Counted from the first letter of the stretch, positions 34,288-62,100 are shown. The stretch: 64,000 nucleotides of DNA from an uncultured Bacteroidota bacterium (GCA_903926385.1 CAIYIS010000007.1:71614-135613); one strand, 5' to 3'. Made by a program: numbers and translations. The notes: generated by a model not told the origin, from the letters alone.

Positions 34288-37200
34288 ATGAACAAAGATT
34301 GTATTCAAGAAAAAATATACGAATTTGTATTTGAAACATTTTTATGCGTACATTTAGCATCGAATTTGAGTAAATCTAATCTAAAAACTTTTAAGAAATT
34401 GAAAAAACAATTACTACTACTACTTGTCTGTATAATTAATGGTTTTGCACTAAGTGCTCAGTCGTTTCAGTTGTTTACAGAAGATTTTGAATCCACCAAT
34501 GCTTTTACCCTTAACACACCTGGACCCGGTTCTTCATCTGGTAATAACAGATGGACAGTAACCAACAATTATACAGGAGTTCCTTTATACAACAATACCA
34601 TGAGTGAGGATAGTACTTATAGCGGTTCCATTGCATTTGCACCTCACAGTAAATATCTTCATATTTATGATTCATTTTCGGGTATTACTAATGCTAATTA
34701 TGATGCTACAACAGTGTCTGACAATTTTTCATGTCTTACCAACGGCTTGTGTACATTGGGAATGGATAGTGTTCATTTTATTTTTTATTACCTGTGCGAA
34801 GGCTCTGCAAATGCTCATGGAGAAGTTTATTATAGTATAAATGGTGGTCCTTGGATCCAAACAGGACAAGCTCAGTATAAGAATAAATACAAATGGCAAT
34901 ACGAAGACATTACTGACCCAGCATTCAGTAATCAAACCAACTTGCGTTTTGGTTTCAGATGGTTAAACGGGAGCGGTACTCCTCCTTCTAACGAATCTTT
35001 TTCTATAGATGATATAGATGTTGCAGCCAGTTACGGAAGCAATACAGGAAATCCGGTTACATGTACTGTTGACAGTGTCGTTCCGAATCCGGTGTGTCAA
35101 GGTAACTATATTTATATTTATTGGCACTTGTCGGATACTTTATGTGACGGAAGTTATACCATTCAACTTTCAAATTCAGGCGGTACTTTTCCGGGAGCAA
35201 ACGCTTGGATATTTAATGTGTATTATCCTCAAACTAGCGGTGTAATGGTTATTCAGTTACCAAATACTGTACTTCCCGGAAGTTGTTATAAAATACGAAT
35301 CAATCGAACCACTCCTCTCCCTGCCATCACAGGAATCGCCAGTGCATGTTATTCAATAATTGCTTGTCCTAATACCATTTCCACACTCCAACCTGTCGTC
35401 ACCATGGATACAAATGCCGTCTGTATAGGTAGTGCTATTGATATTCCATTCTGGTCGGAAGGTGTGTATCTTATTGGCAATTCATACACAGCTCAGCTGT
35501 CCGATTCAAACGGAGTTTTCCCGAGTTCTCCAACTATAATAAATGCTTCGTTTGATCACAATACCTATTCACCAGTTCTTCCCCCTTATCAGCCAGGGTC
35601 AGTTTCAGGTATAGTACCAACAGTGACACCTGGGTGCAATTATTATATCCGTGTTGTTTCCAATAACCCTACTGCAATCGGGACCCCCTATGGACCTTTC
35701 TGCATTCGGCAGTGTGATATAGAAACCAACAACAACACGGATCTTCATTTTTGTGTAACCGATTGTTCTGTGCTTCCTCTTGGGCAGAACACGACAATAC
35801 CGGTTGGTACAAATACGTTTGATTCCACCATGACAGGAGCGGTGTATGGGTTTGGGAATATTTTCAAATCTCAATTAATGAGCAGTATGACATTTGCTCA
35901 GATTGGTTCGGACGGGATACTAGGCCATGTAGCAGCCACACACGACACCATAATGCCTATTCATGCTCCTTGTAAAGATAGTTTAGCTATTAATCCTCCT
36001 TATGGAATTCCGCTTGGAATGAATTATATGAGAGCAATTGCAACGAACACCACTCAGCCGGATAATGCATTGGGTAGTTTGGTAAGAGTTACCATTGGAG
36101 CTACGCATTCTGTGGGGCCTTCTGTAGACTGTTTGAACTACACCACATTTATGCCGCAAGATACTTTTTGTTTAGGCGATCAGATATATCCTGAGTTTTC
36201 GCCTTATAATTATTTTGATAATTCCACTTATCAATGGATTATAAGCGGATTCAATAATGGCAATCCTTTTTCAAATCTTCAGGGCGCTAATTCAAACAAT
36301 ACTGGTTATGCATTCAATTTTCAACCGGGAACTTATACTTTTTCTGTTCTGGAAACCAATAACGGATGTATAGGACAATGGGGACCTGTTAAAACAATTG
36401 TGGTACTTGGGCCTCCAAGTGTTGCTATTACCGGACCAAATGTAATTTGTTTGGGCGACACCGTTCATTATTCGATACCCGCACAAGGTGTGGTTACACT
36501 GGGTGTTTGGAATAGCACTAATTCAAATGGACATTTAATTAATTCAACCAATACAGAAACTAATGCAATCGGTCAATCTACCGGTACATTTTTACTAACT
36601 GTGCAAGCGGTTAATACATGTGGTTCGGCTTCGAATTCACGAAGCATTACTGTAAAACCATATCCGAATGCTAATGCTGGAAATGATACTACTGTTTGTG
36701 TCAATCAGCCGATAACCCTGAGTACACCTACAGGAACAGGTTATATGTACAATTGGGTAACGGGAGGTACTACTGTAAATTCAACACATAGTTTTACGGT
36801 TAATCCGGTATCTACTTCCACTTATGTTGTTACCGTTTCAGTTTCGGGAGGATGTAAAACAAGAGATACGGTGGTGGTAAATGTGCAAACTCCTACCGGA
36901 GTTGCATTTCCTGAAAACGTTTGTCCATTAGGTAATAATCCGATTACATTGGCTGCCGACAGTTCCGGAAGTAGTTATTACTGGTTGCCGGGAGGACAAA
37001 CAACTCCAAGTATTTCGGTAAACGATACGGGTGTTTATTCGGTAGCGATAACAATGCCTGGAAGAGCTTGTGCAAGAGTTGTTACATTTAATGTGGCTCC
37101 CGAACCATGCCCTCAGGATTTGGTGTTAGCTATGCCTAATGTATTTTCGCCAGAAGGAAATGGTGTGAATGATTTTTTCACTCCAATTACTACTGGTGCT

Positions 37201-37398
37201 TATGCTGACTTTAAAGTAAAAATATACGACCGTTGGGGATTGCTGGTGTTCGAATCTGCCGACCCTTTCTTTAAATGGGATGGTACACACAAAGGAAAAA
37301 AATGCCCGGATGGTGTTTATTATTACATTGTAAATTATTTGCAAACTGGAAAAGATAGTCAGAGTCAAAGCGGATTCATAACCTTAATAAGAAAATAG
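34288..37398 (+). CDS. large secreted adhesin-like protein with T9SS type B (gliding-motility-associated, CHU_C-type) C-terminal domain
   Basis: The C-terminal ..FSPEGNGVNDFF...YDRWGLLVFES...KWDGT...GVYYYIV motif set is characteristic of the type B sorting domain. The upstream region has Cys-containing Ig/SprB-like repeats. The true start is probably internal (the signal peptide is near aa 40-58). Confidence 0.75.
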   Translation: MNKDCIQEKIYEFVFETFLCVHLASNLSKSNLKTFKKLKKQLLLLLVCIINGFALSAQSFQLFTEDFESTNAFTLNTPGPGSSSGNNRWTVTNNYTGVPLYNNTMSEDSTYSGSIAFAPHSKYLHIYDSFSGITNANYDATTVSDNFSCLTNGLCTLGMDSVHFIFYYLCEGSANAHGEVYYSINGGPWIQTGQAQYKNKYKWQYEDITDPAFSNQTNLRFGFRWLNGSGTPPSNESFSIDDIDVAASYGSNTGNPVTCTVDSVVPNPVCQGNYIYIYWHLSDTLCDGSYTIQLSNSGGTFPGANAWIFNVYYPQTSGVMVIQLPNTVLPGSCYKIRINRTTPLPAITGIASACYSIIACPNTISTLQPVVTMDTNAVCIGSAIDIPFWSEGVYLIGNSYTAQLSDSNGVFPSSPTIINASFDHNTYSPVLPPYQPGSVSGIVPTVTPGCNYYIRVVSNNPTAIGTPYGPFCIRQCDIETNNNTDLHFCVTDCSVLPLGQNTTIPVGTNTFDSTMTGAVYGFGNIFKSQLMSSMTFAQIGSDGILGHVAATHDTIMPIHAPCKDSLAINPPYGIPLGMNYMRAIATNTTQPDNALGSLVRVTIGATHSVGPSVDCLNYTTFMPQDTFCLGDQIYPEFSPYNYFDNSTYQWIISGFNNGNPFSNLQGANSNNTGYAFNFQPGTYTFSVLETNNGCIGQWGPVKTIVVLGPPSVAITGPNVICLGDTVHYSIPAQGVVTLGVWNSTNSNGHLINSTNTETNAIGQSTGTFLLTVQAVNTCGSASNSRSITVKPYPNANAGNDTTVCVNQPITLSTPTGTGYMYNWVTGGTTVNSTHSFTVNPVSTSTYVVTVSVSGGCKTRDTVVVNVQTPTGVAFPENVCPLGNNPITLAADSSGSSYYWLPGGQTTPSISVNDTGVYSVAITMPGRACARVVTFNVAPEPCPQDLVLAMPNVFSPEGNGVNDFFTPITTGAYADFKVKIYDRWGLLVFESADPFFKWDGTHKGKKCPDGVYYYIVNYLQTGKDSQSQSGFITLIRK

Positions 37399-37405
37399 TC
37401 ACTTG

Positions 37406-37430
37406 TTATTTGTTTTTCCCCCTCTCGAGT
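37406..37430 (+). terminator. GC-rich hairpin immediately after the 37398 stop (terminator-like; same CCCTCTC/GAGAGGG family)
   Basis: CCCCCTCTC-gagtga-GAGAGGGGG perfect 9-bp stem; the T-tract is weak. Confidence 0.3.
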
Positions 37431-37473
37431 GAGAGAGGGGGAAACTATTTTGATAGGGTTAAATAAAACAAAG

Positions 37474-40437
37474 ATGAGGTTGCTTCTACATATATTTTCA
37501 GCTGGTGCTAAGCAGGTTTATTTTCGACTTGTTTTGTTAGTTGCTTTTTTATGTGTTGCTAATCCCTTCGTTTCTTTTGCTCAGCGGCCCGACCCGATAT
37601 TAAAACCCGGACAATACCTTCCTCGTCTTACGGGATTATATTCCAGCAAACAAAGTCTCCCTTCTCCAAATAATACGGATGATACAGAGAATTATTTTCC
37701 TGAAAAATTTCCTTTGGATAAAAATCATTGCAAAGAAGATATTAGCAAACGTACGCCTACATCGAGAACATACAAGTCGGATGATGGGCAAATAGTGGTG
37801 GAAAATTCGCTTGCAAACATAAATTATTATGATAAGAATAAAGAGTTGCAGCCACTCACTCCCAATTTATATCCTGCATTAAACGGATGGATGGGCAAGT
37901 GTCAAGAGTTTCCTACTTATCTTCATCCTGATGGAAGTACCGAACTGACTTTATACGAGCATACATTTTCTTTTAATAAAAATTGCCGAATAAATAATCA
38001 GCCAATTAATATGACTGATTACACGGTAGGAGTAGAGGGTATGTATGCTCATGAGGTTTATCCTTCAGTTGATAAAAAAATCGTGTTTTTTGAAAATATG
38101 ATAGAAACCGATTACATCATTCAACAGCCCGTTGCTAGTAACGGACAGGACATTGTTTTTTCGGAAGAAATTAATTTGCCTGCCGGATATACTATTGTAA
38201 AAAATCCAAAACCTGTGCAGTTTAGAAAAGAAGGAGTGCCGATGGTGAACGATGATGAGTTGGATGAATACATAGTGGTGGATGCAGAAAAACGAGTGCA
38301 ATCGCAATTAAAGACTCCTGTTTATTATGATAAAAAATATAAATCGATAGCAGGTAAATATGAAGTAGTAACGGAGAATAACAAGACCATTCTGAAATAT
38401 GTTGTGCCTGCATCGTGGCTAAATGATGCATCAAGAGTATATCCGGTAACTATCGACCCTGTGGTATTTGGCCCGTATTCATGGTATCCTCCTCAGTTTG
38501 GTCCTTACAGTTATCCTACAGGTTGGTTACCGAGTTGTCAGGCTCCTAACTGGTCATCCGATAGTATGCTTATTACTATTCCTGCCAATGTTACTGTAAC
38601 ACATTTGATAACTTGGGATAGTTATTATGCGGATATGGTAAATGGAATTTTGATGGTATGGGGAGCTATGTACTTGCATTCGCCTTGTGGCACAACACCT
38701 GTGTTTGTTGCCGGTGGAGTAGGGGCCGACTCCTCCGGATATGCTTACCTGGATAGTTTCAATTTGGCAACCTGGGTTGGTTGTTGTTTTCCTCCATCGT
38801 GTAGCCCTCAATCATTTTATTTATCTCACCATTTTCAGCGCATTGCTATGTTGGGGCCTGGTTGCAATTTAACTATGGTTGGTTATAGTCCGGCAAGTCC
38901 ATGGAAATTTCATTGTTTCTTTATTGGGCGAACAGTAGAAACCTCTCAAAGTAATGGATGGTTTCTGTTTCCTTCTCCGGTGTGTTCGGACACCTGTAAT
39001 GTCAAGTTGAGAGTTATTAGTAATTATGGCGTACCTCCTTATACGCTCACACATCCGTGGGCTGCCGGAAGCTTGACGTACGGCACTGCAACAGGTGGAT
39101 GCAATAGTCACGGAACAGACACAATATCGCTTACCATTCCCGGATGTCCTACGTATTGTGGTGTTAATTCTACATTGAGTGTTCCTCCGCCCCATATCAC
39201 AGATGTTTGTGGAGATACAGTGGCGGGGCTTTCGCCTAAAAATATTACCATTCATCCTGCACCCGATGCACAAGCCAGCAATGTTACTGTTTGTGCAGGT
39301 ATGCCCATAAGTATTGCTGTTACATCGTGTGTGCCCACAGCCACATTTATATGGACAGGTAGCGATGCCAGCAGCGGTACAGGAAATATTTCGAATACTA
39401 ATACTGCTGTGCCAGGAGTTATTACATACACCGCTACACCAACAGCCAATGGATGTGCAGGCGCTCCTGCTATAGTTACCGCCACCATAGCCAATCAGCC
39501 AACGGCATCTCTTGTGGCTTCGGGCAATTTTATATGCGGAGGAATTCCGATTACCATTACCGGTTCGGGTGGGCCGCCTTATCAGTGGAGTGGAGGAAGC
39601 ACCGCCACTACAGCTTCAATCACTGTTACTCCAATGCTTACTACTGCTTATTATTTAACGGTAGGTTCGGGCAGTTGTACCGATTCGGCTAGTGTTATTA
39701 TTCAGGTCGATTCAATGCCTTTGCCTACTGTGGCCGGAAATCAGGTTATTTGCGAAGGGCAGAGTACTACTTTGGTTGCTACTGGTGCATCCACTTATTT
39801 ATGGAGTGGAGGTGTAAACAGTACTAATGCAACTGTTACTGTTTCGCCAGTATTAACCACTACTTATTATGTTACTGGTACTACTTCTTGCGGAAGTTCT
39901 ATAGATACTGCTGTGGTTACGGTTAATCCTATACCCAATGTTTACACCGGAAATACAGATACTACCATCACTGCAGGAATTACTTTGCAGTTGAGCAGTT
40001 TTGGTGGTAACTCTTATATATGGAGCGGAGATGGTTTGTCGTGTTCAGCTTGTCCCGACCCCATTGCACAGCCTCTAACCACTACTACGTACACATTAAC
40101 AGGAACCGATTTGAACGGATGTTCTTCTACCGATTACTTTACGGTTACCGTATTGCCGGGAGAAGATATTTTATATATACCGAATACTATTACCCCTGAC
40201 GAGAATGATAAAAACGATGTTTTTTATGCCTATGGCATCAACATAAAACATTTGCAAATGCAGGTGTTCGACCGTTGGGGAGAACTTATTTTTGAAAGTA
40301 ATGATAAATCAATTGGCTGGAATGGTATGCAAAACGGGGATTATGTGGGTATGGGGGTGTACGTTTATGTTATTCGTTGCGACTTTAACGATGGCACCAG
40401 TGTGAAACGAATTGGAAATATTAATGTGATTTATTAG
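37474..40437 (+). CDS. large secreted adhesin-like protein with T9SS type B C-terminal domain
   Basis: Signal peptide MRLLLHIFSAGAKQVYFRLVLLVAFLCVANPFVSFAQ. Repeated ~75-aa Cys-containing Ig-like units (..CxG..xxLxAxGAxxYxWSxG..). C-terminal ITPDENDKNDVF...FDRWGELIFES...GWNG...GVYVYVI type B CTD. Confidence 0.75.
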   Translation: MRLLLHIFSAGAKQVYFRLVLLVAFLCVANPFVSFAQRPDPILKPGQYLPRLTGLYSSKQSLPSPNNTDDTENYFPEKFPLDKNHCKEDISKRTPTSRTYKSDDGQIVVENSLANINYYDKNKELQPLTPNLYPALNGWMGKCQEFPTYLHPDGSTELTLYEHTFSFNKNCRINNQPINMTDYTVGVEGMYAHEVYPSVDKKIVFFENMIETDYIIQQPVASNGQDIVFSEEINLPAGYTIVKNPKPVQFRKEGVPMVNDDELDEYIVVDAEKRVQSQLKTPVYYDKKYKSIAGKYEVVTENNKTILKYVVPASWLNDASRVYPVTIDPVVFGPYSWYPPQFGPYSYPTGWLPSCQAPNWSSDSMLITIPANVTVTHLITWDSYYADMVNGILMVWGAMYLHSPCGTTPVFVAGGVGADSSGYAYLDSFNLATWVGCCFPPSCSPQSFYLSHHFQRIAMLGPGCNLTMVGYSPASPWKFHCFFIGRTVETSQSNGWFLFPSPVCSDTCNVKLRVISNYGVPPYTLTHPWAAGSLTYGTATGGCNSHGTDTISLTIPGCPTYCGVNSTLSVPPPHITDVCGDTVAGLSPKNITIHPAPDAQASNVTVCAGMPISIAVTSCVPTATFIWTGSDASSGTGNISNTNTAVPGVITYTATPTANGCAGAPAIVTATIANQPTASLVASGNFICGGIPITITGSGGPPYQWSGGSTATTASITVTPMLTTAYYLTVGSGSCTDSASVIIQVDSMPLPTVAGNQVICEGQSTTLVATGASTYLWSGGVNSTNATVTVSPVLTTTYYVTGTTSCGSSIDTAVVTVNPIPNVYTGNTDTTITAGITLQLSSFGGNSYIWSGDGLSCSACPDPIAQPLTTTTYTLTGTDLNGCSSTDYFTVTVLPGEDILYIPNTITPDENDKNDVFYAYGINIKHLQMQVFDRWGELIFESNDKSIGWNGMQNGDYVGMGVYVYVIRCDFNDGTSVKRIGNINVIY

Positions 40438-40502
40438 TGCATTGGTTCGATTGATCAATGGTTAATTAGTTTCCTACCTATTCCTAATCTTATAATCTTC
40501 TG

Positions 40503-40662
40503 AACGCCTCACCCCTGAACTAGCACACAATCCGGCTCAAACAGCCACAGGCTGTTTGCCCTTCCCTCTCCAAAGGAGAGGGGGCGAAGCTTAGTGAAAC
40601 ATGAATTTTGTTTATAATTAGGCTCCCCTCTCTTTTGGAGAAGGGCCGTGGGTGAGGCGTTT
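40503..40662. repeat. ~160-bp highly structured palindromic element with terminal inverted repeats (MITE/REP-like)
   Basis: Outer inverted repeat GAACGCCTCACCCC ... GGGTGAGGCGTT encloses the hairpins AAACAGCC-aca-GGCTGTTT and CCCTCTCC-aaa-GGAGAGGG, the same motifs as at 3870-4050. Confidence 0.5.
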
Positions 40663-40740
40663 TGTTATTTATAAATAATGTTAAGGATGGGTGCAATTAG
40701 TATAGTTGTTTCTCCTTCCCCAATTTTCTTCCTTTATTAA

Positions 40741-41097
40741 TTAGTATGCTCTGAACAGCGATTCCAAAGGGATGTTTAGTTTTTCGTGCAAATTACGAAT
40801 CATATTAATGGATAGTTTACGCTTGCGGTTTAATATCTCGCTTACTCTGTTTCTTGAACCAATGATATTAGTGAGGTCTTTTGCCTCGTAACCCAATTGT
40901 TCCATTCTAAATTTAATCGCTTCAATTGGGTCAGGAGCATCTATGGGGTAATGCTCATCTTCATATTTTTCAATCAAAATACCAAGAATCTCTAATTCGT
41001 TTCCTTCCTTAGTTCCGGGACGAGAATCGAATATTTCTTCCAAACGGAGCAATGCTTGTTTATAATCTTTTGCCGATTTTATGGGTTTAATGTTCAT
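40741..41097 (-). CDS. higA: type II antitoxin HigA (XRE-family HTH)
   Basis: 118 aa. The HigA-like N-terminal region MNIKPIKSAKDYKQALLRLEEI and HTH region LGYEAKDLTNIIGSRNRVSEILNRKRKLSINMIRNL. It lies directly downstream of a HigB-like toxin. Confidence 0.7.
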   Translation of the reverse strand: MNIKPIKSAKDYKQALLRLEEIFDSRPGTKEGNELEILGILIEKYEDEHYPIDAPDPIEAIKFRMEQLGYEAKDLTNIIGSRNRVSEILNRKRKLSINMIRNLHEKLNIPLESLFRAY

Positions 41098-41108
41098 CTG
41101 TTGAATTA

Positions 41109-41423
41109 TTAAATTGTGTTAGCGTCTATCCTGTTGTAAGCAGCATGTGTTCCCACAAACCGAATCCAAACCATTTTATATTTATAATTTATCTTTACTA
41201 TTAAACGATACGAATTGCCTTTAATATTAAATACAACCCTGTTGTTGGCCAAAAAGCTTGCACTCGGATAATTTATTTTTATATCTTTTGTGGAACGCCA
41301 ATCAGCAGTGTTCGTTTCGTCATACCAAGCCTTTAATTGCTGTTCGCTATCGGCATGTTTTTCCCAAAACTCCTTCAATGTTTTTTTTGCAATAACTCTC
41401 AATGTCTTTTTATATGGGTACAA
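41109..41423 (-). CDS. higB: type II toxin HigB (RelE/ParE superfamily mRNA interferase)
   Basis: 104 aa. ..KTLKEFWEKHADSEQQLKAWYDE....NYRLIVKINYKYKMVWIRFVGTHAAYNRIDANTI matches the HigB family. Toxin-first order with an 11-bp gap to higA. Confidence 0.75.
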   Translation of the reverse strand: MYPYKKTLRVIAKKTLKEFWEKHADSEQQLKAWYDETNTADWRSTKDIKINYPSASFLANNRVVFNIKGNSYRLIVKINYKYKMVWIRFVGTHAAYNRIDANTI

Positions 41424-41910
41424 ATGTACGAATCGTTTTTTAGGAATGTTCCCAAATGGGGAACTTTATTTTTAAGAGGTGTTTTTTGTTTATTACTTTT
41501 TTCATCTTATCCGTGATGTAAAATATTTTTATCATAAATTAACCAACCAAATAAATTATTTTGTATTTTTGAACCATCCTATTCAACTGACAGCAAAAGC
41601 TTAAGTCGATTGAGGCGAAATGGTAATTCTATTATTTTTTAGATTTTGTTGGTTTTTTGTTAGGTTAAAATAAAAGAGTGCGCTGATTTGTATGATTGTT
41701 TAGGATAAAAAATGATTGCTTATAATACAATTGGAATTAGGAAGAAAATGAGATAGAATAGTATGATCGAATTTATGATAAAGTGGTTTGCACATGCGTA
41801 CTTCTCTTTATGCACAACATCATTTTTTATCATCACTTCAATCATAAATCATTTTCAATTCTTACCTATCATAATTATCAGCGTACCATTTTTCGAATCA
41901 ACAGAAAATT

Positions 41911-42627
41911 TTGTATAACTTCAATTTTTATAGTATGAAAACAAAACGCTATTTAACCAGCACTAAAACACGCAGAAGTATTGTCCGTAAAAGTTACAAG
42001 TCCGGAAAAAAACAAAAAAAGATACTGATTTTATTGAGCACAACCACCGTAATTCATACGGTTATCGGTTTGCTGAAAATGCCCAGAACAGTGGCTGCAA
42101 AAGGTGTTCGGGCTTCCGAAATTTCAAGGGCTGTGGCAGCAAGCACACGAGTGACTACTTCGGCAGCAGTAATAACTGCACTCAATCAAAAAATTAATAC
42201 CTATACTAAAGCCACTCCAAAAACTCGGCCTGCAGCAGAACTAGCCATGATGAAAGCTCTCAATTCTATTCTTCGTAATTATCAAACTACAGCAGATAAC
42301 GACCCTGAAAATGCTTTGGACATATTTGCTTCCGGAACATTTGGAACTAAAGGGTATGGAGGACGCACTCAACAAGAATTTAAAGTGAAAAATTCTACGG
42401 TAACTGGCTCAGTTACTCTAGTGGCTAAAGGAGGTGGAAACTATTGTTGTCATGTTTGGAAGTATTCTCTGGATGGAGAGAACTGGAATTGGATAATGCC
42501 TACCATTAAAGCTAAAGCTACTATCGAAGACCTTCCAGAAGGGCAAACTGTTTATTTTACTCACGAGTTAGTTACCGGAAAAGGGCCACAAGGTGTAAGT
42601 CAAATATTCAAATTAGTGATAGGCTGA
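41911..42627 (+). CDS. hypothetical protein
   Basis: 238 aa; basic N-terminus, one hydrophobic segment, no recognisable motifs. Start may be at MKTKRYL (41935). Confidence 0.4.
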   Translation: MYNFNFYSMKTKRYLTSTKTRRSIVRKSYKSGKKQKKILILLSTTTVIHTVIGLLKMPRTVAAKGVRASEISRAVAASTRVTTSAAVITALNQKINTYTKATPKTRPAAELAMMKALNSILRNYQTTADNDPENALDIFASGTFGTKGYGGRTQQEFKVKNSTVTGSVTLVAKGGGNYCCHVWKYSLDGENWNWIMPTIKAKATIEDLPEGQTVYFTHELVTGKGPQGVSQIFKLVIG

Positions 42628-42689
42628 TTAGTAATTTGCTTTGCCAAGTATACAAAATACATAAGTAGTTGAGTAAAATGTACAACAAC

Positions 42690-42960
42690 TCACATTGTTG
42701 TTACAATAATTTCTCACATTGTTACAATATTATCTCACATTGTGAGGAGAATCTCTTACATTATTACAATAATCTCTCACATTCTTACAATAATGTCTTA
42801 CATTATTACGATAATGTCTCACATTGTTATAATAATCTCTAACATTATTACGAAAATTTCTTACATTGTTACAATAATTTATCACATTATTACGATAATG
42901 TCTTACATTATTACAACATTGCCTCTCATTATTACATTAATGTCTCACATCAATATAACA
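42690..42960. repeat. tandem array of about 13 copies of a 21-bp unit, each containing the palindrome ATTGT-n-ACAAT
   Basis: Units such as AATTTCTCACATTGTTACAAT, AATGTCTTACATTATTACGAT; the half-sites ATTGT/ACAAT are exact reverse complements. There are no unique spacers. Confidence 0.85.
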
Positions 42961-43045
42961 ACTCAGTATTCTGCTTAAACATAACAAGTTTAAAGGGGAA
43001 TTTCTTCGTCTGTTCTTACTGCCAATCAAATATTAAAAAGCTAAA

Positions 43046-43087
43046 GTGAAAAGGGAATAATGAATAGAAAGATAGTAAAGGAGTAAA
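43046..43087 (+). pseudogene. remnant of a T9SS type A CTD tail (..KGIMNRKIVKE*); left direct repeat of the PIN cassette
   Basis: AAGGGAATAATGAATAGAAAGATAGTAAAGGAGTAA is a 37-nt, 3-mismatch direct repeat of 43785-43821. Only 11 codons stay in frame before an upstream stop. Confidence 0.4.
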
Positions 43088-43098
43088 ATTTCTTTGCC

Positions 43099-43470
43099 TT
43101 ATTTTTCATAAAGCAAAACATCAATTTCATTTATTTTTTTAAAATCTTTATCTGCCGTAAGTAATGGTAATGAAAGATATTGTGCTGTGGCGGCAATAAT
43201 AGCATCAGGTAATTTCAATTTATTTTTAACGCGATGTGTGATTGCATTTTTTTTGATGGAAGGATTAATATCAATAATAATACAATCGTTTAATAATTCA
43301 GAAAGTTTATCTTTTTCATGCAAAGAATATTTTCTATACGACAATAATTCTAATTCGGTGATAAATGAAATGTAAACTGAGTTGGAATCGAGCAGAGAAA
43401 CTAATGCTTCGTCTTTATCGAGAAGGTAAATGAGAATATTTGTGTCAACAAAAATATTATTGCCATTCAT
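43099..43470 (-). CDS. vapC: PIN-domain toxin (VapC-like)
   Basis: 123 aa. Conserved acidic residues (FVDTN.., ..ELE.., ..TADKDF) in PIN order. Confidence 0.75.
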   Translation of the reverse strand: MNGNNIFVDTNILIYLLDKDEALVSLLDSNSVYISFITELELLSYRKYSLHEKDKLSELLNDCIIIDINPSIKKNAITHRVKNKLKLPDAIIAATAQYLSLPLLTADKDFKKINEIDVLLYEK

Positions 43471-43621
43471 CGCGCATTTGTTTTTGAATGGATAATGCGT
43501 CTTCAGAGAAGTGAATAGCTCCGGAATATTTTTTTGCGTTAAATACCCTTTTATTATTTCCAGATTTAAGGAATTTCTCTAAAATTCGCTTGCTTGTTTT
43601 TTTATTAATGACCAATACCAT
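43457..43621 (-). CDS. putative small antitoxin partnered with the PIN toxin
   Basis: 54-aa ORF (MVLVINKKTSKRILEKFLKSG...MRDEWQ), too short for the ORF track. Its TAA stop overlaps the PIN ATG (..GATGAATGGCAATAA), the classic toxin-antitoxin arrangement. Confidence 0.5.
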   Translation of the reverse strand: MVLVINKKTSKRILEKFLKSGNNKRVFNAKKYSGAIHFSEDALSIQKQMRDEWQ

Positions 43622-43740
43622 ACTACTATTTTTTTTGTAAAAGTACGAAAAAGAAAAATACTACTATTAAAATAGTGAACCTATTTGGAGAATGCATCCA
43701 ACAACTAACAACCAACAACCAACAACTTACCCTTGATATG

Positions 43741-43824
43741 AGCGGTATGGCAAAGGGAGTTTATTTTTTAACAGTAAATAGCAAGAAGGGAATAGTGAAT
43801 AGAAAAATAGTGAAGGAGTAAGGA
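43741..43824 (+). pseudogene. C-terminal fragment of a T9SS type A sorting domain (..LTLDMSGMAKGVYFLTVNSKKGIVNRKIVKE*); right direct repeat of the cassette
   Basis: In-frame Por_Secre_tail-like tail of about 35 aa. Its stop is followed by a strong terminator, but there is no upstream ORF body (the frame opens only after a stop at ~43690). Confidence 0.5.
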
Positions 43825-43861
43825 TGCAAGGAATATCCATAGTTAAAGAATAAAGAAAAGG

Positions 43862-43893
43862 CCTCCGAACAAAATAGTTCGGAGTTTTTTTTG
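43862..43893 (+). terminator. rho-independent terminator
   Basis: CTCCGAAC-aaaatag-(t)TCGGAG stem plus T8. Confidence 0.55.
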
Positions 43894-43945
43894 TTTTATA
43901 CGGCCCCGATGAAGCAAAATATGCCTTGTATCTGAAAAAAAAGAG

Positions 43946-43953
43946 TACTTTTG
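43946..43953 (+). promoter_or_regulatory. putative -7 promoter element TACTTTTG upstream of tig
   Basis: Matches the TAnnTTTG consensus about 45 nt upstream of the tig start. Confidence 0.3.
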
Positions 43954-43996
43954 TGCTCCTTAAAAAAAATTAAAGAAAAATTACCAAAAACAAATT

Positions 43997-45349
43997 TTGA
44001 AAATGAATATTATTCAGGAGAACATTGACGAGTTAAATGCAGTATTGAAAGTGGAAGTATCGGCCGAAGATTATCTGCCGCAAGTAAAATCGGTATTGAA
44101 AAATTATCAGAAAAAAGCCAGTATACCAGGGTTTCGTCCCGGTAAAGTACCTGCAGGATTGATAGAAAAACAATACGGAAAAGGAATAAAAGTGGATGAG
44201 ATTCAAAAACTGTTGAGCGATTCATTGATTCAATATATGACAGAAAAAAAACTGAATGTATTGGGAAGTCCGTTGCCTAAAGAAGGTACCGAAAACACTA
44301 TTGACTGGGATGGAAGTAATTTCGAATTTTATTATGAATTAGGTCTTTCGCCTGAGTTTTCGGTAGAAATTACACCGAAAGATAAATTGGTTTTTCAAAC
44401 CTTGAAAATAGATGATGCTTTGTTAAACAAAAACATTGAAAGCATCACCAAACGTTACGGAAAAGTACAACCTCAGGAATCGGTAAGTGCTGATGATTTA
44501 TTGTATGGAGAATTTGTTCAGCTAAACGATGCAGGTGAAGTGGTAGAAGGCGGAATTAACAAAGCAGGTTCTTTGTTTCTTGACAAATTAGTGGATGACG
44601 ATACCAAAAAAATGTTGTTGGGTAAAAAAGCGGGCGACCAAGTAGTGATTCATTCTACTAAACTTTCGGCAAACAAAACCGACCTTGCAGCAATGCTGGG
44701 AATTGAAAAAGGGATTGCCGAAATATTGAACTGCAATATTCAGTTCACCATTAAAGAAATTACACATATCGTTCCTGCCGAAATCAATCAGGAGTTTTTA
44801 GATAAAGTGTTCGGACCGGGTGTGGTTAATTCGGAAGAAGAATTCAGATTAAAAATAAAAGACGAACTTACGGAGAGTTATCTGAATGATAGCAATACCA
44901 AGTTTTATTACGATGCAATAGATTATTTAATGTCTAAAATAAATTTTAATTTGCCGGAGAAGTTTTTGAAACGTTACCTTACTTTTTCGAACAGAGATAA
45001 ATTTACACCTGATGAAGTTGAAAAGGATTTCAGTCAATATTCTATTGGAATGAAATGGCAGTTGATACAAAACAAACTGACTGATGAGTATAACATTAAT
45101 GTTACAGAAGAGGACATGGTTGATTACATCAAAAATAACATCATCCGTCAGTATGGAGCTCATTTGCTGGAGTCGATGGGAGATGAAGAGTTAACCAAAA
45201 CAGCAAAACGTGTGTTGGGTAACGAAGAGGAGGCTAAAAAAGTTCATGACGACCTTCTTGTTTATAAAATGAAAGAGCTTTTTAAATCAAAATTTACTTT
45301 GGAAAATCAGGAAGTAGATTATGATGTGTTTTTTGGTGTGAAAAAATAG
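43997..45349 (+). CDS. tig: trigger factor
   Basis: N-terminal ribosome-binding domain with the GFRPGKVP signature; the length and the tig-clpP-clpX gene order are conserved. Confidence 0.9.
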   Translation: MKMNIIQENIDELNAVLKVEVSAEDYLPQVKSVLKNYQKKASIPGFRPGKVPAGLIEKQYGKGIKVDEIQKLLSDSLIQYMTEKKLNVLGSPLPKEGTENTIDWDGSNFEFYYELGLSPEFSVEITPKDKLVFQTLKIDDALLNKNIESITKRYGKVQPQESVSADDLLYGEFVQLNDAGEVVEGGINKAGSLFLDKLVDDDTKKMLLGKKAGDQVVIHSTKLSANKTDLAAMLGIEKGIAEILNCNIQFTIKEITHIVPAEINQEFLDKVFGPGVVNSEEEFRLKIKDELTESYLNDSNTKFYYDAIDYLMSKINFNLPEKFLKRYLTFSNRDKFTPDEVEKDFSQYSIGMKWQLIQNKLTDEYNINVTEEDMVDYIKNNIIRQYGAHLLESMGDEELTKTAKRVLGNEEEAKKVHDDLLVYKMKELFKSKFTLENQEVDYDVFFGVKK

Positions 45350-45399
45350 AATTACCTTCGCATCGCAATCAAAGAAATTAAATTCTAAAATCTATATAT

Positions 45400-46074
45400 A
45401 TGTTCGACAATAATGAATTTCGCAAGTATGCTGTAAAGCACAAAGGAATCAGTGGAAGTACATTCGATTCTTATTCCCGTCACAACGTTACCAGTATGAC
45501 CCCTTACATCATTGAGGAGCGTCAGCTGAACGTAGCTCAGATGGACGTATTTTCGCGTTTGATGATGGACCGGATTATTTTTCTGGGAACAGGAATTGAC
45601 GATCAAGTAGCTAATATTATTCAGGCACAGCTATTGTTTTTACAATCAGTAGATGCTAAAAAAGACATTCAGATTTATTTGAACAGTCCGGGAGGCTCTG
45701 TTTATGCAGGTTTGGGGATTTATGATACCATGCAATATATTTCTCCTGATGTAGCTACCATTTGTACAGGTATGGCTGCTTCGATGGGAGCGGTATTGAT
45801 GTGTGCTGGTGCAAAAGGAAAACGAGCTGCTTTGAAACACGCTCGTGTAATGATTCATCAGCCAATGGGTGGAGCAGAAGGACAAGCATCGGATATCGAA
45901 ATCACAGCTAAGGAAATTCAAAAGTTGAAAAAAGAATTGTACGACATCATTGCTAAACACAGCGGACAAACGTATGAAAAAGTGTGGGCCGATAGCGACC
46001 GCGATTACTGGATGACTTCGGAAGAAGCCAAAGAATACGGTATGGTGGATGAGCTGTTGTTCAGAACAAAATAA
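45400..46074 (+). CDS. clpP: ATP-dependent Clp protease proteolytic subunit
   Basis: RIIFLG..., the TICTGMAASMGA (active-site Ser) and HQPMGG (His) motifs. Confidence 0.92.
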   Translation: MFDNNEFRKYAVKHKGISGSTFDSYSRHNVTSMTPYIIEERQLNVAQMDVFSRLMMDRIIFLGTGIDDQVANIIQAQLLFLQSVDAKKDIQIYLNSPGGSVYAGLGIYDTMQYISPDVATICTGMAASMGAVLMCAGAKGKRAALKHARVMIHQPMGGAEGQASDIEITAKEIQKLKKELYDIIAKHSGQTYEKVWADSDRDYWMTSEEAKEYGMVDELLFRTK

Positions 46075-46209
46075 ACAAAGCGTTTACTGAAAATAAAACG
46101 TAAAATTAAATGGTTATGGGCATTGCCGGTAGCCATTTAATTTTTTAACAAAATACCCGGAGCGAGTAGTTAATCATAAACCCCGATTTCTAAATCACTC
46201 AATTAAAAA

Positions 46210-47466
46210 ATGGCAAAAGAAAAAGAAGACAAAGAAATTAAATGCTCTTTCTGCGGAAGAAGCAAGCAAGGAACAGATGTTTTGATAGCCGGTATTACGG
46301 GGCATATCTGTAATCATTGCGTTGCTCAGGCACAAACTATAGTTCGCGATGAAGTGAGTCAGCGTACCAATTCTTCTATGTATTCGGCTCTTCAATTACT
46401 CAAACCTCATGATATCAAAAAGCATCTGGATGAGTATGTAATAGGTCAGGATGAAGCAAAGAAAGTGCTTTCGGTAGCTGTTTACAACCATTACAAACGA
46501 TTGATGCAATCGCAAACCAAGACTACTCACAAGGACGATATAGAAATAGAAAAGTCGAATGTGATTATGATTGGCGAAACCGGTACTGGTAAAACGTTAT
46601 TGGCTCGTACCATTGCTAAAGTGCTCAATGTGCCTTTTTGTATTGCTGATGCTACTGTGCTAACAGAAGCAGGATATGTAGGAGAAGATGTGGAAAGTAT
46701 TTTATCGCGTTTGCTTCAGGCTGCCGATTTTGATGTAGCTGCAGCCGAAAGAGGAATAGTGTTTATTGATGAATTGGATAAAATTGCCCGCAAAGGAGAT
46801 AATCCTTCCATCACCAGAGATGTTTCGGGAGAGGGAGTTCAACAAGGTCTTTTAAAATTGCTCGAAGGGTCTATAGTGGGTGTGCCTCCTCAGGGCGGAC
46901 GTAAACATCCGGAACAAAAGATGATTCAGGTGAACACCAAAAATATTCTTTTTATTTGCGGAGGTGCATTCGATGGCATTACCCGTCATATAGGAAATAG
47001 ATTGAATACTCAAGCTATAGGTTATAGTCTTGACAAGGATGTAGAAAACATTGATAAAGAAAATTTGCTTCAGTATGTTTCGCCTCAGGATATCAAAAGT
47101 TTCGGACTCATACCCGAATTAATCGGTCGTTTACCGGTACTTACTTATCTTAATCCGTTGGATGCCGACACCCTGCTGAGAATATTAAGTGAGCCTAAAA
47201 ATGCATTGATAAAACAATACACTCATCTATTTGAAATGGATGGAGTGAAAATAAAGTTCGAAAAGGGGGTGCTGGATTACATTGTGGAGAAAGCAATGGA
47301 ATTTAAATTGGGAGCAAGAGGTTTGCGTTCCATCTGCGAAGCAATCATGATCGAACTGATGTACGATACACCTTCTAATCCATCGGTGAAGGAAATAAGC
47401 ATTACACTAAAATATGTAAAAGATAAATTGAAAAAATCATTAATCAACAAGCTGAAAGCCGCATAG
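46210..47466 (+). CDS. clpX: ATP-dependent Clp protease ATP-binding subunit ClpX
   Basis: C4 zinc finger CSFCGRS...CNHC, Walker A GETGTGKT, Walker B FIDELDKI. Confidence 0.92.
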   Translation: MAKEKEDKEIKCSFCGRSKQGTDVLIAGITGHICNHCVAQAQTIVRDEVSQRTNSSMYSALQLLKPHDIKKHLDEYVIGQDEAKKVLSVAVYNHYKRLMQSQTKTTHKDDIEIEKSNVIMIGETGTGKTLLARTIAKVLNVPFCIADATVLTEAGYVGEDVESILSRLLQAADFDVAAAERGIVFIDELDKIARKGDNPSITRDVSGEGVQQGLLKLLEGSIVGVPPQGGRKHPEQKMIQVNTKNILFICGGAFDGITRHIGNRLNTQAIGYSLDKDVENIDKENLLQYVSPQDIKSFGLIPELIGRLPVLTYLNPLDADTLLRILSEPKNALIKQYTHLFEMDGVKIKFEKGVLDYIVEKAMEFKLGARGLRSICEAIMIELMYDTPSNPSVKEISITLKYVKDKLKKSLINKLKAA

Positions 47467-56137: not shown

Positions 56138-59100
56138 TTACTTAAGCACCGTAACACTTCCAATATATTTATGGTCTTCTTTGTGATTATCTTTTAAATT
56201 TACCACGTAAACATACACACCATCCTGCACCAAGTTCCCCATATAGGTTCCATCCCAGTGTTTAGATAAATCATCTCCATAAAATAACAGATTTCCCCAC
56301 CGGTCAAAAATTCTCATTTCGTAGGAAGTAATGCTTTCGCCCAAACCGTAAAACTCATCATTCACACCATCTCCGTTAGGAGTAAAAGCATCCGGAATAT
56401 AAAAAGTAAATACACCTTCTATAGAAATACAATGGGTTACAGTATCCGAACAATTCGCATTTGACGCGGTTAGTAACACGCAGTAAGAACCTATTTGAGA
56501 ATATTCATGTGTTGGATTTTTGGCACTACTGAAATTATTTGGCATTCCTGTATCTCCGAAATTCCAGCTCCACATAGTTGAATTGGTTGATAGATTAGTA
56601 AAATTAACAACCGGGAAAGTGATTAATGATGTCAATGGTGCTGTGAATTCAGCCACAGGCACCACATTAACTGTAACAGTTCCCGTTCCCGAACTAGAGC
56701 ACCCATTGGAGGTTCCGGTTACTGTATAAGTAGTTGTTGTGTCAGGAATTACTACTATATTGTTAGAAGTAGAGCCCGTATTCCACGAATAAGCAAGTGC
56801 TCCGTTGGCCGTAAGCACTGCTGAAGTACCTGCACACACCGTTACCGAATTTACACTAATTACAGGAAATTGATAAACCGTTATGGTTGCAGATGCAGTA
56901 GTGCTGCATCCCAATGCTGTTCCGGTTACAGTGTAACTTGTGGTAGCTGTTGGAAACACTGTAATGGCCGCAGTATTTGCCGCAGTATTCCATAAAAACG
57001 AAGTGGCATTACCCAACGCAGTTAAGGTTGCCGGTTGTCCTGCACAAGAAGAGATCGAATTTACAATAAGATTAGGAAGAGGATTAACCGTAACAGTTGA
57101 AACAGCTGTTGCCACACATCCAAGTGTTGAGCCGGTTACCGTATACGTAGTGGTTACAACAGGAGAGGCTGTTGCTGATGCTCCTGCAGCCGTTACTCCT
57201 GCACTCCATGTATAACTCACCGCTCCTGCTGCTGTCATGGTGGCCACAGCTCCGTTACATATTGTTGGTGAAGTAACGGTAACAATCGGAAGCGGATTAA
57301 CCAGCACCGATATGGTGTCTCTCGCACTTTCACAGCTAGCTATGGTTTGCGATACATAATAATTTGTTGTTCCTGCCACAAGTGTCGAAGGTGTTGGCGA
57401 AAGCGCATTTCCTGAGCCTCCTGCCGCAGCGGTGTACCAAAGCAAACCCGCACCGGTGGAAGTCAGGGCGGGTGCAACATCGTTCTGACAATAGGTAAGC
57501 GGTGAAACAACAACAGGTGGAGCAGGGGCACTAATGGTGACATTATAGCTGACTGCAGTTCCTGCACCACAAGTACCGGTTTCGGTAACAGAAACAGTTC
57601 CTACTCCGGCCGCACCAAAACTCACGGTTATCTGGTTTGTTCCTTGTCCGGCCGTTATGCTTGCTCCTGCCGGTACAGACCAGTTGAATGTAGAACCAGC
57701 AGTATTGGTTACAGAATATATAATACCTGTGGCATTCGGGCAAACAGGAGTAGTACCTGTGATGGCCGATGTTACGGGCAAAAGAGTAACCCCTACAGCT
57801 AAACTGACTGCTGTTCCCGGTCCGCAATTGTTTGTTTCGATCACAGAAACATTGCCACTGGTTACTCCAAAGGTTACTGTTATTTGATTGGTTCCTTGTC
57901 CGGCTGTAATGGTTGCACCTGCCGGAACGGTCCAGGCATAAGTGTTTCCAACTGTATTGGTAACTGAATAAACAACTCCTGTTGTATTTAAACATACAGT
58001 TGCAGGTCCTGTAATGACGGAGGTTGCAGGCAAAGAAGTTACCACAACAGCAAAGTTGACAGCCGCTCCCGGTCCGCAATTATTAGTTTCTATTACAGAA
58101 ACATTGCCTGAATTTGAACCGAAGGTTACAGTTATTTGATTGGTGCCTTGTCCTGCTGTGATACTTGCACCAACAGGAACTGCCCATGCATAGGTATTCC
58201 CAACAGTGTTGGTTACAGAAAACGTTACACCAGCTGTATTCGGACAAACAGGTGTAGTGCCTGTAATAGCCGATGTAACCGGTAAAGAGAATAAAGTAAC
58301 AGCAAAATTTACAGCTGCTCCCGGTCCGCAATTGTTGGTTTCTATTACGGAAACATTGCCCGCAGTCGCTCCAAAGTTTACTGTAATCTGGTTGGTGCCT
58401 TGGCCGGCAGTAATTGTTGCTCCTGCCGGAACGGTCCAGGCATAGGTATTTCCAACCGTATTGGTAACTGAATAAACAACTCCGGTGGCATTCGGGCAAA
58501 CAGGGGTAGTACCTGTAATGGCTGATGTAACAGGTAACGGAGAAATAGCAACAGCAAAGTTAACAGCCGCACCCGGTCCGCAATTATTGGTTTCTATTAC
58601 GGAAACATTGCCGGCATTGGTTCCAATGGTTACGGTTATCTGATTAGTCCCCTGACCGGCTGTAATGACAGAACCGGCTGGCACTGTCCATGCATAGGTT
58701 GAACCTGCTGTATTGGTAACCGAATAAATTACACCGGCAGTGTTTGGACAAACTGGTGTGGTGCCTGTGATAACTGATGTTACAGGTAAAGTGGTAACAC
58801 CAACAGCAAAGTTAACTGCCGCTCCCGGTCCGCAATTGTTTGTCTCAATTACTGAAACTGTTCCAGAAGTTACACCAAAGCTAACTGTAATTTGATTGGT
58901 ACCTTGACCGGCTGTTATGACTGCTCCTGCCGGAACAGTCCAGGCATAGGTATTTCCAATGGTGTTGGTAACAGAATAAGTAATACCTGTTGCATTCAAA
59001 CACACAGGTGTAATTCCTGTTATAGCTGATGTTGTTGGCAATGGAAAAATGGCAACAGCAAAGTTAACAGCTGCTCCCGGTCCGCAATTATTCGTTTCTA

Positions 59101-62100
59101 CAACTGAAACATTTCCCGGAGTAGTTCCAAAATCAACAGTGATCTGATTGGTGCCTTGTCCGGCTGTAATTGTTGCACCTGCCGGAACGGTCCAGGCATA
59201 AGTATTTCCAACCGTATTGGTAACTGAATAAACAACTCCTGTTGTATTAGGACAAACTGGTGTAGTGCCTGTGATGGCTGAAGTAACAGGTAATGAAAAA
59301 GTGGTTACAACAAAATTTACTGCTGTTCCTGGTCCGCAATTATTCGATTCGGCAACGGAAACAGTACCAGCAGTCGCTCCAAAGTTTACAGTAATCTGAT
59401 TAGTGCCTTGTCCTGCAGTAATCGTTGCTCCGGCAGGAACGGTCCAGGCATAAGTGTTTCCAACTGTATTGGTAACTGAATAAACAGCACCTGTTGCATT
59501 CGGGCAAACGGGAGTAGTGCCTGTAATGGTTGATGTGACAGGCAATGAATAAGTAGTTACAGCAAAATTTATGGCTGTTCCGGGTCCACAATTATTCGAT
59601 TCGACAACAGAAACAGTGCTTGCTGTTGCTCCAAAAGTTACTGTTATTTGGTTGGTGCCTTGTCCGGCTGTAATCGTAGCTCCTGCCGGAACGGTCCAGG
59701 CATAAGTATTTCCAACAGTGTTGGTGACTGAAAAAACAACTCCTACAGCATTCGGACAAACTGGTGTGGTGCCTGTGATGACTGATGTTACAGGTAACTG
59801 TGTAATCGTAACCGGGAAGTTAACGGCTGTTCCGGGTCCGCAATTGTTTGTCTCAATTACTGAAACTGTTCCAGAAGTTACACCAAAGCTAACTGTAATT
59901 TGATTGGTACCTTGACCGGCTGTTATGATTGCTCCTGCCGGAACAGTCCAGGCATAGGTATTTCCAATGGTGTTGGTAACAGAATAAGTAATGCCAGAGG
60001 CATTCAAACAAACCGGAGAAGAGCCTGTGATGGCTGATGTGGTTGGCAAAGGTGAAATGGCTACAGCAAAATTAACTGCCGGACCTGAACCGCACATATT
60101 GGTTTCAATTACTGAGACATTTCCCGGAGTGGCTCCGAAAGTAACGGTTATCTGATTGGTGCCTTGACCGGCTGTGATGGCAGCTCCTGTCGGAACAGTC
60201 CAGGCATAAGTATCTCCGGCAATATTGGTAACAGAATAAATTACCCCTGTGGTATTCGGACAAACTGGTGTGGTACCGGTAATGGCTGAAGTAACAGGTG
60301 GAGGAAGTATAGCAACAGCATAGTTAACTGTAGCTCCCACTCCGCATGTTCCCGTTTCGGTAACGGTAACATTTCCTCCCGTAGGGCCGAAGTTTACTGA
60401 AATTTGATTACTGCCTTGACCCGAAACGAGTGTAGCTCCTGCCGGAACTGTCCAGGCATAGGTACTGCCGGTGGTATTAACTACTGAAAAAAGAACTCCT
60501 GCAGCATTTGCACAAATAGGTGAAGTACCCGTGATAGCTGATGTAACTGGAAGTAAAGTAATAGCTACCGGAAGACTAACAGCAGCTCCTATTCCACACA
60601 CATTCGATTCGATAACAGAAACGGTGCCGCCTGCAGCTCCCCAATTGATGGCAATCTGATTTGTACCTTGCCCTGAAGCAATGGTAGCTCCGCCAGTTAC
60701 TGTCCAGCTGTATGTATTTCCAGCCACATTGGTAACCGAATAAGCTATACCGGGAGCATTGAGACAAACGGGCGAAGGGCCAATGATGGGTGTAGTTACA
60801 GGAATTGGTGTAACCACCAAGGCATAATTTACAGCAGGTCCCGGCCCGCAAACATTGGTTTCTACCACAGAAATGGTTCCTCCGGTTGTGCCGAAATTAA
60901 CGGTAATTTGATTAGTGCCTTGTCCGGCTGTAATGGTGGCTCCTGCCGGAACCGTCCAGGCATAGGTATCTCCAGGAGTATTGGTAACCGAATAACTAAC
61001 ACCTGCTGTGTTCGGACAAACAGGTGTGGTACCTGTGATGGCTGATGTAACAGGCAAAGGAGTAACAGCAACGGCCATGTTAACAGCTGCTCCGGGTCCG
61101 CAAATATTGGTTTGAACCACCGAAACGGTTCCGTTTGCACTTCCCCAGTTAACGGTTATCTGATTGCTACCTTGTCCGGCTGTGATGGTGGAACCTGCCG
61201 GAACGGTCCAGGCATAGGTGTTTCCAACAACATTAGTAACCGAATAAACCAATCCGGTTTGATTAGGACAAACGGGAGTGGTGCCTGCAATGGCTGATGT
61301 AACAGGTAAAGGGAAAATAGCAACTGGAAAATTAACTAAAACTCCCGGGCCGCAAACATTACTTTCTGTAACCGAAACATTGCCTCCTGTGCCGGCAAAG
61401 GTGACTGTAATCTGATTGGTACCTTGTCCGGAGGTAATAGTAGCACCTACCGGAACGGTCCAGGCATAGGTATCTCCGGGAACATTGGTAGCCGAATAAA
61501 TAACACCTGCAGCCGTAGGGCAAACGGGTGTGGTGCCTGTGATGGCTGAGGTAACGGGCAATTGAGTTACCACAACTGCAAGGTTAACGGCAGCTCCGGG
61601 TCCGCAAATATTGGTTTGAATAACAGAAATAGTTCCGTTGGCTCCGCCCCAGTTAACAGTTATCTGATTAGTGCCTTGTCCGGCTGTAATGGTGGCACCG
61701 GCCGGAACGGTCCAGGCATAGGTGTTTCCAACAACATTAGTAACCGAGTAAATCAATCCAGTTTGATTAGGACAAACGGGAGTGGTGCCTGCAATGGCTG
61801 AAGTAACAGGCAGAGGGAAGATAGCAACCGGAAAATTAACTGAAACTCCGGGTCCGCAAACATTGCTTTCTGTTACCGAAACATTGCCTCCTGTACCGGC
61901 AAAGGTTACTGTAATTTGATTGGTGCCTTGTCCGGATGTAATGGTAGCTCCAGCCGGAACGGTCCAGGCATAGGTATCTCCGGGAATATTGGTAACCGAA
62001 TAAACGACACCAGCAGCTGTAGGGCAAACGGGGGTGGTACCGGTGATGGCTGATGTAACTGGCAATTGAGTTACCACAACTGCAAGGTTAACAGCTGCTC

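Follow-up and report, generated by a model that had tools for sequence, protein, structure and literature searches.

A VapBC-type toxin–antitoxin module between short direct repeats of a T9SS sorting-domain end in an uncultured Bacteroidota bacterium

How does a toxin–antitoxin (TA) cassette come to lie between two copies of the very end of a T9SS sorting domain? We addressed this question for a locus of an uncultured Bacteroidota bacterium (GCA_903926385.1), using a 64,000-nt stretch of contig CAIYIS010000007.1 (71614–135613), hereafter the window, from whose first letter all positions are counted (Table 1). A preliminary description, made from the sequence alone, had proposed insertion of the cassette into the 3′ end of a T9SS cargo gene that has since been lost, or duplication and recombination of that end. 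The locus is essentially an ordinary rearrangement scar in an accessory region, and the evidence below argues for a history of more than one step.

Table 1 Features of the locus and its neighbourhood (positions in the window).
Feature	Position	Strand	Content or basis
HigA	40741–41097		profile match
HigB	41109–41423		profile match
17-nt site CAATCAAATATTAAAAA	43023–43039		single-copy in the window, L006 and L008
36-nt direct repeat, left copy	43051–43086	+	last 11 CTD codons and stop (KGIMNRKIVKE-stop), isolated
vapC-type PIN-domain toxin gene, 123 aa	43099–43470	–	Pfam PIN; PDB VapC 7by2
Antitoxin gene, 54 aa	43457–43621	–	conserved beside the toxin gene at unrelated loci
TA leader and probable promoter	43622–43650	–	alignment with L010
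T9SS type-A sorting-domain relic, 59 codons and stop	43642–43821	+	Por_Secre_tail, TIGR04183
36-nt direct repeat, right copy	43786–43821	+	authentic end of the CTD relic (KGIVNRKIVKE-stop)
Intrinsic terminator of the lost cargo gene	43863–43892	+	CTCCGAAC-loop-GTTCGGAG, then T8

The cassette itself is probably a standard and functional type II VapBC module, in which a PIN RNase toxin would be neutralised by the small antitoxin encoded just upstream. Profile and structure searches bore out the earlier recognition of a vapC-like gene: its product matches Pfam PIN (PF01850) over residues 6–114 (profile positions 1–118 of 120; E = 1.6e-18), and its one match among solved structures in the PDB is the VapC ribonuclease 7by2 (E = 5.6e-10). 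Matches to the NCBIfam VapC models were weak and stayed under their cut-offs. Residues D9 (in DTN), E41, D89 (LPDAI) and D109 (KDF) are aligned with their counterparts in 7by2; they appear to be the conserved acidic active-site residues of PIN domains, presumably with a catalytic role. At E ≤ 1e-5 we counted 2554 homologues of the toxin, and the exact protein is present on many contigs. Against an 85%-identical homologue on contig L010, dN/dS is 0.056 (with dS saturated), a ratio that points to strong purifying selection on what looks like a normal module. The antitoxin shares 46 of 53 residues with its L010 partner, and between the window and the sister strain the toxin gene has accumulated three synonymous and two non-synonymous changes.

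An equivalent small ORF precedes the toxin gene in the unrelated loci L010–L015, L019 and L021. The preliminary description had the 54-aa ORF overlap the toxin gene such that its stop lay on the toxin ATG; the ORF and its overlap are real, and the overlap measures 14 nt, with the antitoxin stop 11 nt inside the toxin gene. Searches of Pfam, NCBIfam and PHROGs returned no family for the antitoxin, including no AbrB, RHH, Phd/YefM or HTH hit. The module thus resembles type II VapBC systems in its PIN domain and acidic residues, in its small overlapping upstream partner, in the size and order of a two-gene operon, in its wide, patchy distribution across accessory regions and in its strong purifying selection, and is unlike them in that the antitoxin fits no described antitoxin family. 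Judged by these comparisons, the VapBC module and the sorting-domain relic beside it would belong to known kinds, and the antitoxin family appears to be undescribed.

At the DNA level, the cassette is homologous to L010 between the toxin stop and a point about 20 nt upstream of where the antitoxin gene starts. Since homology with other members of the TA family is limited to this interval (~43090–43645), the cassette abuts both repeat and relic: 12 nt separate the toxin stop from the left repeat, and the CTD relic begins 0–10 nt from the cassette. Promoters of Bacteroidota share a –7 box of consensus TAnnTTTG. In the window, TACTTTTA (minus strand, 43637–43644) is one mismatch away from this box, and L010 carries a perfect copy, TATCTTTG, at the equivalent place; from this consensus we infer that a promoter at ~43637–43680 drives leftward transcription of the TA pair. 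The TA family showed no general tie to CTD tails, as none occur in loci L019–L023.

Two minor features touch on the cassette and its family. The presumed TA promoter lies between two exact copies of an 11-nt direct repeat, ATACTACTATT (43620–43630 and 43658–43668), of which one overlaps the start codon of the antitoxin gene and the second falls in the CTD-relic codons N-T-T-I; the repeat could be an operator or the signature of a junction. On L010 (3840–3938), a 32-aa ORF directly follows the homologous PIN gene (a gene call is also present in L011 and L013). It has a signal-peptide-like N-terminus, followed by ASLDLSPGKVVKE and a stop codon, and ends in KVVKE. This ORF could be a collapsed T9SS cargo gene; we rejected it as a sign of an association between TA genes and CTD tails, as it has no Pfam support.

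To the right of the cassette lies the longer of the two sorting-domain fragments. It matches Pfam Por_Secre_tail at profile positions 17–74 of 75 (E = 2.8e-11) and TIGR04183 at positions 22–72 of 72, reaching the end of the model (E = 2.5e-10), and gave E = 1e-22 in tblastn. The fragment therefore extends over about 56–59 codons where about 35 had been counted before; the accompanying statements that it keeps its terminator and has no gene body stood. Compared with T9SS type-A cargo genes (TIGR04183/Por_Secre_tail), it agrees with the sorting domain to the last residue, and differs in that the first ~19 CTD residues (consensus YPNPFTSQTTITFSEEQ), the passenger domain and the signal peptide are missing; the left copy is shorter still, at 11 codons. 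Because its reading frame is closed at 43609–43611 and the TA cassette lies directly upstream on the opposite strand, it is a relic and not a cargo gene. The terminator consists of a hairpin (43863–43884) followed by a T-run, and our search found two terminator-like sites (one hairpin, counted on both strands) against 0.3 expected. Three non-synonymous and two synonymous changes separate the relic between strains, a pattern compatible with a pseudogene, in numbers too small for proof.

A HMMER search of 1.84 billion representatives with the relic as query yielded 575 hits at E ≤ 0.001. Among these are many full-length proteins of 300–830 aa whose CTDs are 60–71% identical across the whole relic (for example P0250, with the C-terminus ...EKGIVNRKIVKD, also given as ...IKVMNMLGECIQQLTTNNKEQILDMSGYAKGVYFVRIESEKGIVNRKIVKD), and the relic is accordingly a member of a well-populated CTD subfamily. 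Orphan CTD fragments without a gene body also occur on unrelated metagenome contigs, at L027 1284–1472 (P0244), L028 483–740 (P0312) and L029 555–782 (P0381), downstream of non-coding DNA. Their domain homology begins within ~10 codons of the start of the window relic ('...KNTTIKIVN'), and that of P0317 does so less exactly; for the shared truncation point, a post hoc estimate gives p of roughly 0.01. These other truncated relics beginning near the same point are the least ordinary aspect of the locus. A candidate inverted CTD tail in L028 was rejected as a 10-nt chance match.

We then turned to the repeats. Near-identical direct repeats do flank the TA cassette, over 36 nt and not the 37 nt first reported, and both encode the end of a T9SS type-A CTD, as had been recognised. 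The two copies, which start 735 nt apart in the window, are identical at 33 of 36 positions, and the three differences are all A/G transitions (G, A and G in the right copy). They are the sole matches in the 64-kb window at up to three mismatches, a level at which 100 dinucleotide-preserving shuffles gave no match. Even at up to nine mismatches only the same two copies are found, and a degenerate scan of JGI metagenomes for the encoded tail returned the same locus only; the possibility that the repeat is a common dispersed element, raised at the outset as a refutation, can thus be set aside. In the sister lineage (L006 and L008), the copies are identical at all 36 positions and equal the window's right copy, so that the three differences in the window are probably derived. 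Divergence from the sister lineage is raised in the tract that contains the window's left copy, at 8 differences in 94 nt compared with ~1.3% in the TA genes, and the simplest reading is that the repeat was originally perfect and the window's left copy is drifting.

Both boundaries of the repeat are sharp. An upstream extension of the homology between the copies is not significant (p = 0.23 and 0.52), a downstream one scores 0, and the 3′ edge coincides exactly with the TAA stop codon. Upstream of the left copy, a stop codon lies three codons before KGIMNRKIVKE, and we found no CTD homology there, either with Pfam on three reconstructions (some of them frameshift-corrected) or in an anchored-extension alignment, which was not significant; at the protein level, the copy extends by two codons (SE-KGI...), too short to count. 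The repeats have no role in TA function. As 36 bp of homology they could delete the cassette, a deletion that the toxin would counter-select.

Relatives were searched for an intact parent gene and for an allele lacking the cassette, the two checks that the preliminary description had proposed; neither was found. A word-indexed protein search with the relic returned the sister-strain relic only, and when JGI metagenomes were scanned with a degenerate DNA pattern of the tail KGI[V/M/I]NRKIVKE, the sister-strain copy of this locus was the sole match; viral contigs gave none. The JGI metagenome and viral contig scans likewise gave no second insertion of the repeat-bounded unit. Conspecific contigs that cover the whole region (L001/L024, L006 and L008) share the arrangement of the window, and shorter ones (L002–L004, L025 and L026) agree with it over the parts they cover. 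An empty site would read ...GCTAAAGTGAA + 36-mer + GGATGCAAGGAA, and the junction of a circle or of a conversion would carry the right-copy alleles (G, A, G) followed by AATTTCTTTGCC; neither a cassette-free allele, an empty site nor an excised circle was present in the conspecific assembled contigs or the JGI scan, a weak negative that covers assemblies only. Related genomes thus do show the arrangement without an uninterrupted ancestor, an outcome first named as a refutation, yet these genomes are conspecific and the refutation is not decisive.

The arrangement is common to both conspecific lineages with assembled DNA. The sister lineage (L006, from JGI 3300021354, and L008, from ENA ERZ27300129) is 93–96% identical to the window overall, with mosaic divergence. 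In the 3′ half of tig (44800–45300), identity between the window and L006 drops to 75–88% between flanks of 98–100%, which argues for mosaic recombination between lineages. A search with the trigger factor gave no close outgroup: the best hit among GTDB species genomes reached 40% identity, and the best non-conspecific trigger factor is 63% identical, with an rRNA operon upstream and conserved synteny downstream of tig. In the literature, we found nothing relevant on TA cassettes flanked by direct repeats.

The accessory region that holds the locus varies among strains and is bordered by a type-B cargo gene (CHU_C; 37429–40437) on one side and the housekeeping tig-clpP-clpX block on the other; two type-B cargo genes are found just upstream of the locus. 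The whole stretch from the type-B cargo gene to tig varies among conspecific strains. A HigBA toxin–antitoxin pair (40741–41423), for instance, occupies ~1 kb (40448–41477) where L008 has ~109 bp with a terminator. Comparison of the window with L008 revealed no direct repeats flanking the HigBA segment, and we rejected it as a model for the mechanism, as it is a replacement without flanking repeats.

A second variable segment lies much closer to the cassette. Contig L030 (sample ERZ27313323), retrieved with a 230-aa orphan protein, is 100% identical to window positions 35935–43039 and then diverges. After 330 nt of non-coding DNA, the insertion (L030 7089–9006) carries a plus-strand gene of at least 524 aa, with a signal peptide, an LRR, an SdrD_B-like domain and, up to the contig end, the first 79 positions of DUF7619. 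Over its last 39 residues, the product shares 85% identity with the beginning of P0391/P0288, which continues with the rest of DUF7619 and then a Por_Secre_tail of the relic's subfamily; the L030 gene is probably a T9SS type-A cargo gene. In L001/L024, from the same sample, 228 nt of unrelated sequence are joined to the window from 43023 onward (L024 1–245). Both insertion junctions (L030 and L024) contain the 17-nt site of Table 1, forming a perfect 17-nt repeat beyond which homology is not significant.

One strain that matches the window at 100% across 7.1 kb hence has an extra segment between perfect 17-nt repeats. This segment includes a T9SS-type cargo gene 28 nt to the left of the left 36-nt repeat, with the 17-nt repeat 11 nt away. 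Because both the window and the more distant L006 and L008 are without this segment, its insertion in that strain is more parsimonious than repeated deletion. The cargo gene body proposed to have been lost is indeed absent from the window, and the co-occurring variant strain has a candidate near the left repeat. However, other DNA lies between this gene and the repeat, and as the CTD of its closest homologue is merely 59% identical to the window relic, it is probably a paralogue and not the parent. As for the interior of the insertion, the exact partial protein was not in the cluster table, and nothing similar was found in the viral collection. This exchange of content (HigBA, cargo gene) between the same conserved flanks is reminiscent of minimal mobile elements and other strain-variable cassettes exchanged by homologous recombination in flanking genes, a concept that, unlike the situation here, does not predict short perfect border repeats.

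What, then, is the minimal history of the locus? With U for the left flank, D for the 36-mer, T for the TA cassette, C for CTD residues ~20–67 and R for the terminator plus tig, the order is U-D-T-C-D-R. C-D-R is contiguous ancestral sequence, namely an in-frame CTD followed by its own terminator. The novel junctions number three (U/D, D/T and T/C) in less than 800 bp; a single insertion cannot explain the locus, and at least two events are needed. The placement of a TA cassette between repeats was therefore correctly described at the outset, and its simple insertion into the 3′ end of a cargo gene was not.

The history that we favour, at about an even chance of being right, is that a VapBC module became lodged in a decaying, strain-variable cluster of T9SS cargo genes and that the left repeat is a trimmed second copy of a CTD end. 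Its key intermediate, common to every model we built, would have had the form (cargo gene ...C-D)-T-(C-D)-R: a cargo gene ending in a CTD and its stop codon, a convergent TA cassette, a second CTD copy from residue ~20 to the stop, the terminator and tig. Such a structure could have arisen from tandem or paralogous cargo genes or, equally possibly, by single-crossover integration of TA-bearing DNA with a CTD fragment; a third route would be a long duplication made during the insertion. A later deletion from the left would then have removed the upstream gene and spared its last 36 nt.

Lodging followed by trimming would account for the right copy continuing as an in-frame CTD and for the TA cassette filling the gap precisely. 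The homology would end at the stop codon because coding homology between paralogous CTDs ends there, and the left boundary would be sharp because it is a deletion end-point. Further features that appear to favour it are the relic's own terminator, the last profile position being reached, a cargo-rich and rearranging neighbourhood, and the perfect repeats in L006 and L008. On none of the contigs examined did an intact gene end in the left repeat, as the intermediate would require, and as there is no CTD-like remnant to the left of the left copy, the deletion end-point is an idea that we infer and do not observe.

Two other explanations compete with this one, and we consider each of them unlikely. 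According to the first, the left copy would be a short templated patch, with 36 nt copied from the nearby CTD end during illegitimate or replication-based repair (template switching) as the TA cassette was joined. Three novel junctions in less than 800 bp would suit such a process, as would a copy that is short, exact, sharply bounded and near its template; it would, however, leave the block's ending exactly at the stop codon as a coincidence, and no microhomology was identified at the junctions.

Under the second, to which we accord a similarly low probability, the 36-nt repeats would resemble attL and attR, generated when a small circular or mobilisable unit made up of the TA genes and a truncated CTD integrated at the 3′ end of a resident cargo gene; such a unit might re-excise as a 735-bp circle. 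Like islands at the 3′ ends of genes or tRNAs, the locus has accessory DNA with a TA module between gene-3′-end repeats that are perfect in L006 and L008 and have sharp edges at the stop codon, as is typical when elements insert at gene 3′ ends and restore them. The perfect 17-nt repeat around another insertion 11 nt away, and the several unrelated truncated CTD relics that begin within ~10 codons of the same CTD position, would also speak for it. Yet neither within the unit nor next to it is an integrase or recombinase gene present: the ORFs of at least 100 aa in 37429–47466 encode a CHU_C cargo protein, HigA, HigB, the PIN toxin, trigger factor, ClpP and ClpX, or, in the case of the 238-aa orphan protein, match no family. 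Integration would moreover require the left copy to be preceded by the CTD of the target gene, whereas an intact target gene is missing from the expected side. The bounded segment measures merely 699 bp, other members of the TA family reside in unrelated contexts without CTD fragments, and neither an empty site nor a second insertion of the unit was found in conspecific contigs or in the JGI and viral scans.

A bolder extension, which we regard as distinctly improbable, would have both the 36-nt repeat of the CTD tail and the 17-nt repeat at 11 nt distance act as recombination sites of small integrase-less cassettes. These would home to T9SS cargo genes at their 3′ ends by means of a targeting arm, a truncated sorting domain that reaches from the 'xIKIxN' strand as far as the stop; if true, it would explain why independent CTD relics start near the same domain position. 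Finally, that the repeats are a target-site duplication from transposition of the TA cassette is highly improbable despite direct repeats around an inserted-looking cassette, since the right repeat is in frame with ~48 further CTD codons inside the 'insert' (the duplicated target would need to have completed a CTD by chance, and this anatomy effectively refutes the idea), no terminal inverted repeats or transposase ORF were found at the unit, and 36 bp far exceeds known transposon duplications.

Returning to the favoured history of lodging and trimming, the locus offers a documented example of TA modules settling in decaying, strain-variable cargo clusters of Bacteroidota, and one at which short perfect repeats mark the borders of variable segments. 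The recurrent CTD truncation point, together with two perfect repeats 11 nt apart, leaves some small probability that cassettes use CTD ends as landing sites. Should the repeats be active recombination sites, then the abundant similar ends of T9SS sorting domains would constitute a previously unrecognised landing pad for accessory cassettes.

Several further observations concern the surroundings of the locus. An Rfam search of 41400–44100 detected nothing. The orphan protein mentioned above (238 aa, or 230 aa from ATG; 41911–42627) matches no Pfam, NCBIfam or PHROGs family; the 3′ half of its gene has 81–82% DNA identity between strains, making it far more diverged than its neighbours, and it lies directly upstream of an array with a 21-bp period. 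This array (42701–42950), 100 nt to the left of the left repeat, comprises 12 units, each with the inverted repeat ACATTATT-AC-AATAATGT. In L006 it has equal length and no indels, and every unit is strain-specific (TTGGTTC for TTRTTAC), resulting in an identity of ~70% as against ~99% in the TA genes. The window contains two further tandem arrays of 21-bp period with unrelated units, at 5134–5658 (within a coiled-coil-like ORF) and 26543–26773, and a 21-bp array (147–379) also precedes the truncated CTD relic on the unrelated contig L028. G+C-rich palindromic REP-like elements (CCCTCTCC...GGAGAGGG) adjoin variable segments at 40500–40660 in the window, at L010 3225–3265, directly upstream of the homologous TA cassette, and at L027 1205–1235. 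Elsewhere in the window, the minus strand encodes an intact small type-A cargo protein with a plastocyanin-like domain and a Por_Secre_tail (18197–18799) and a 2614-aa type-B T9SS cargo protein (56138–63982) whose ~21 PKD-like domains are encoded by a 252-bp tandem repeat in ~19 copies.
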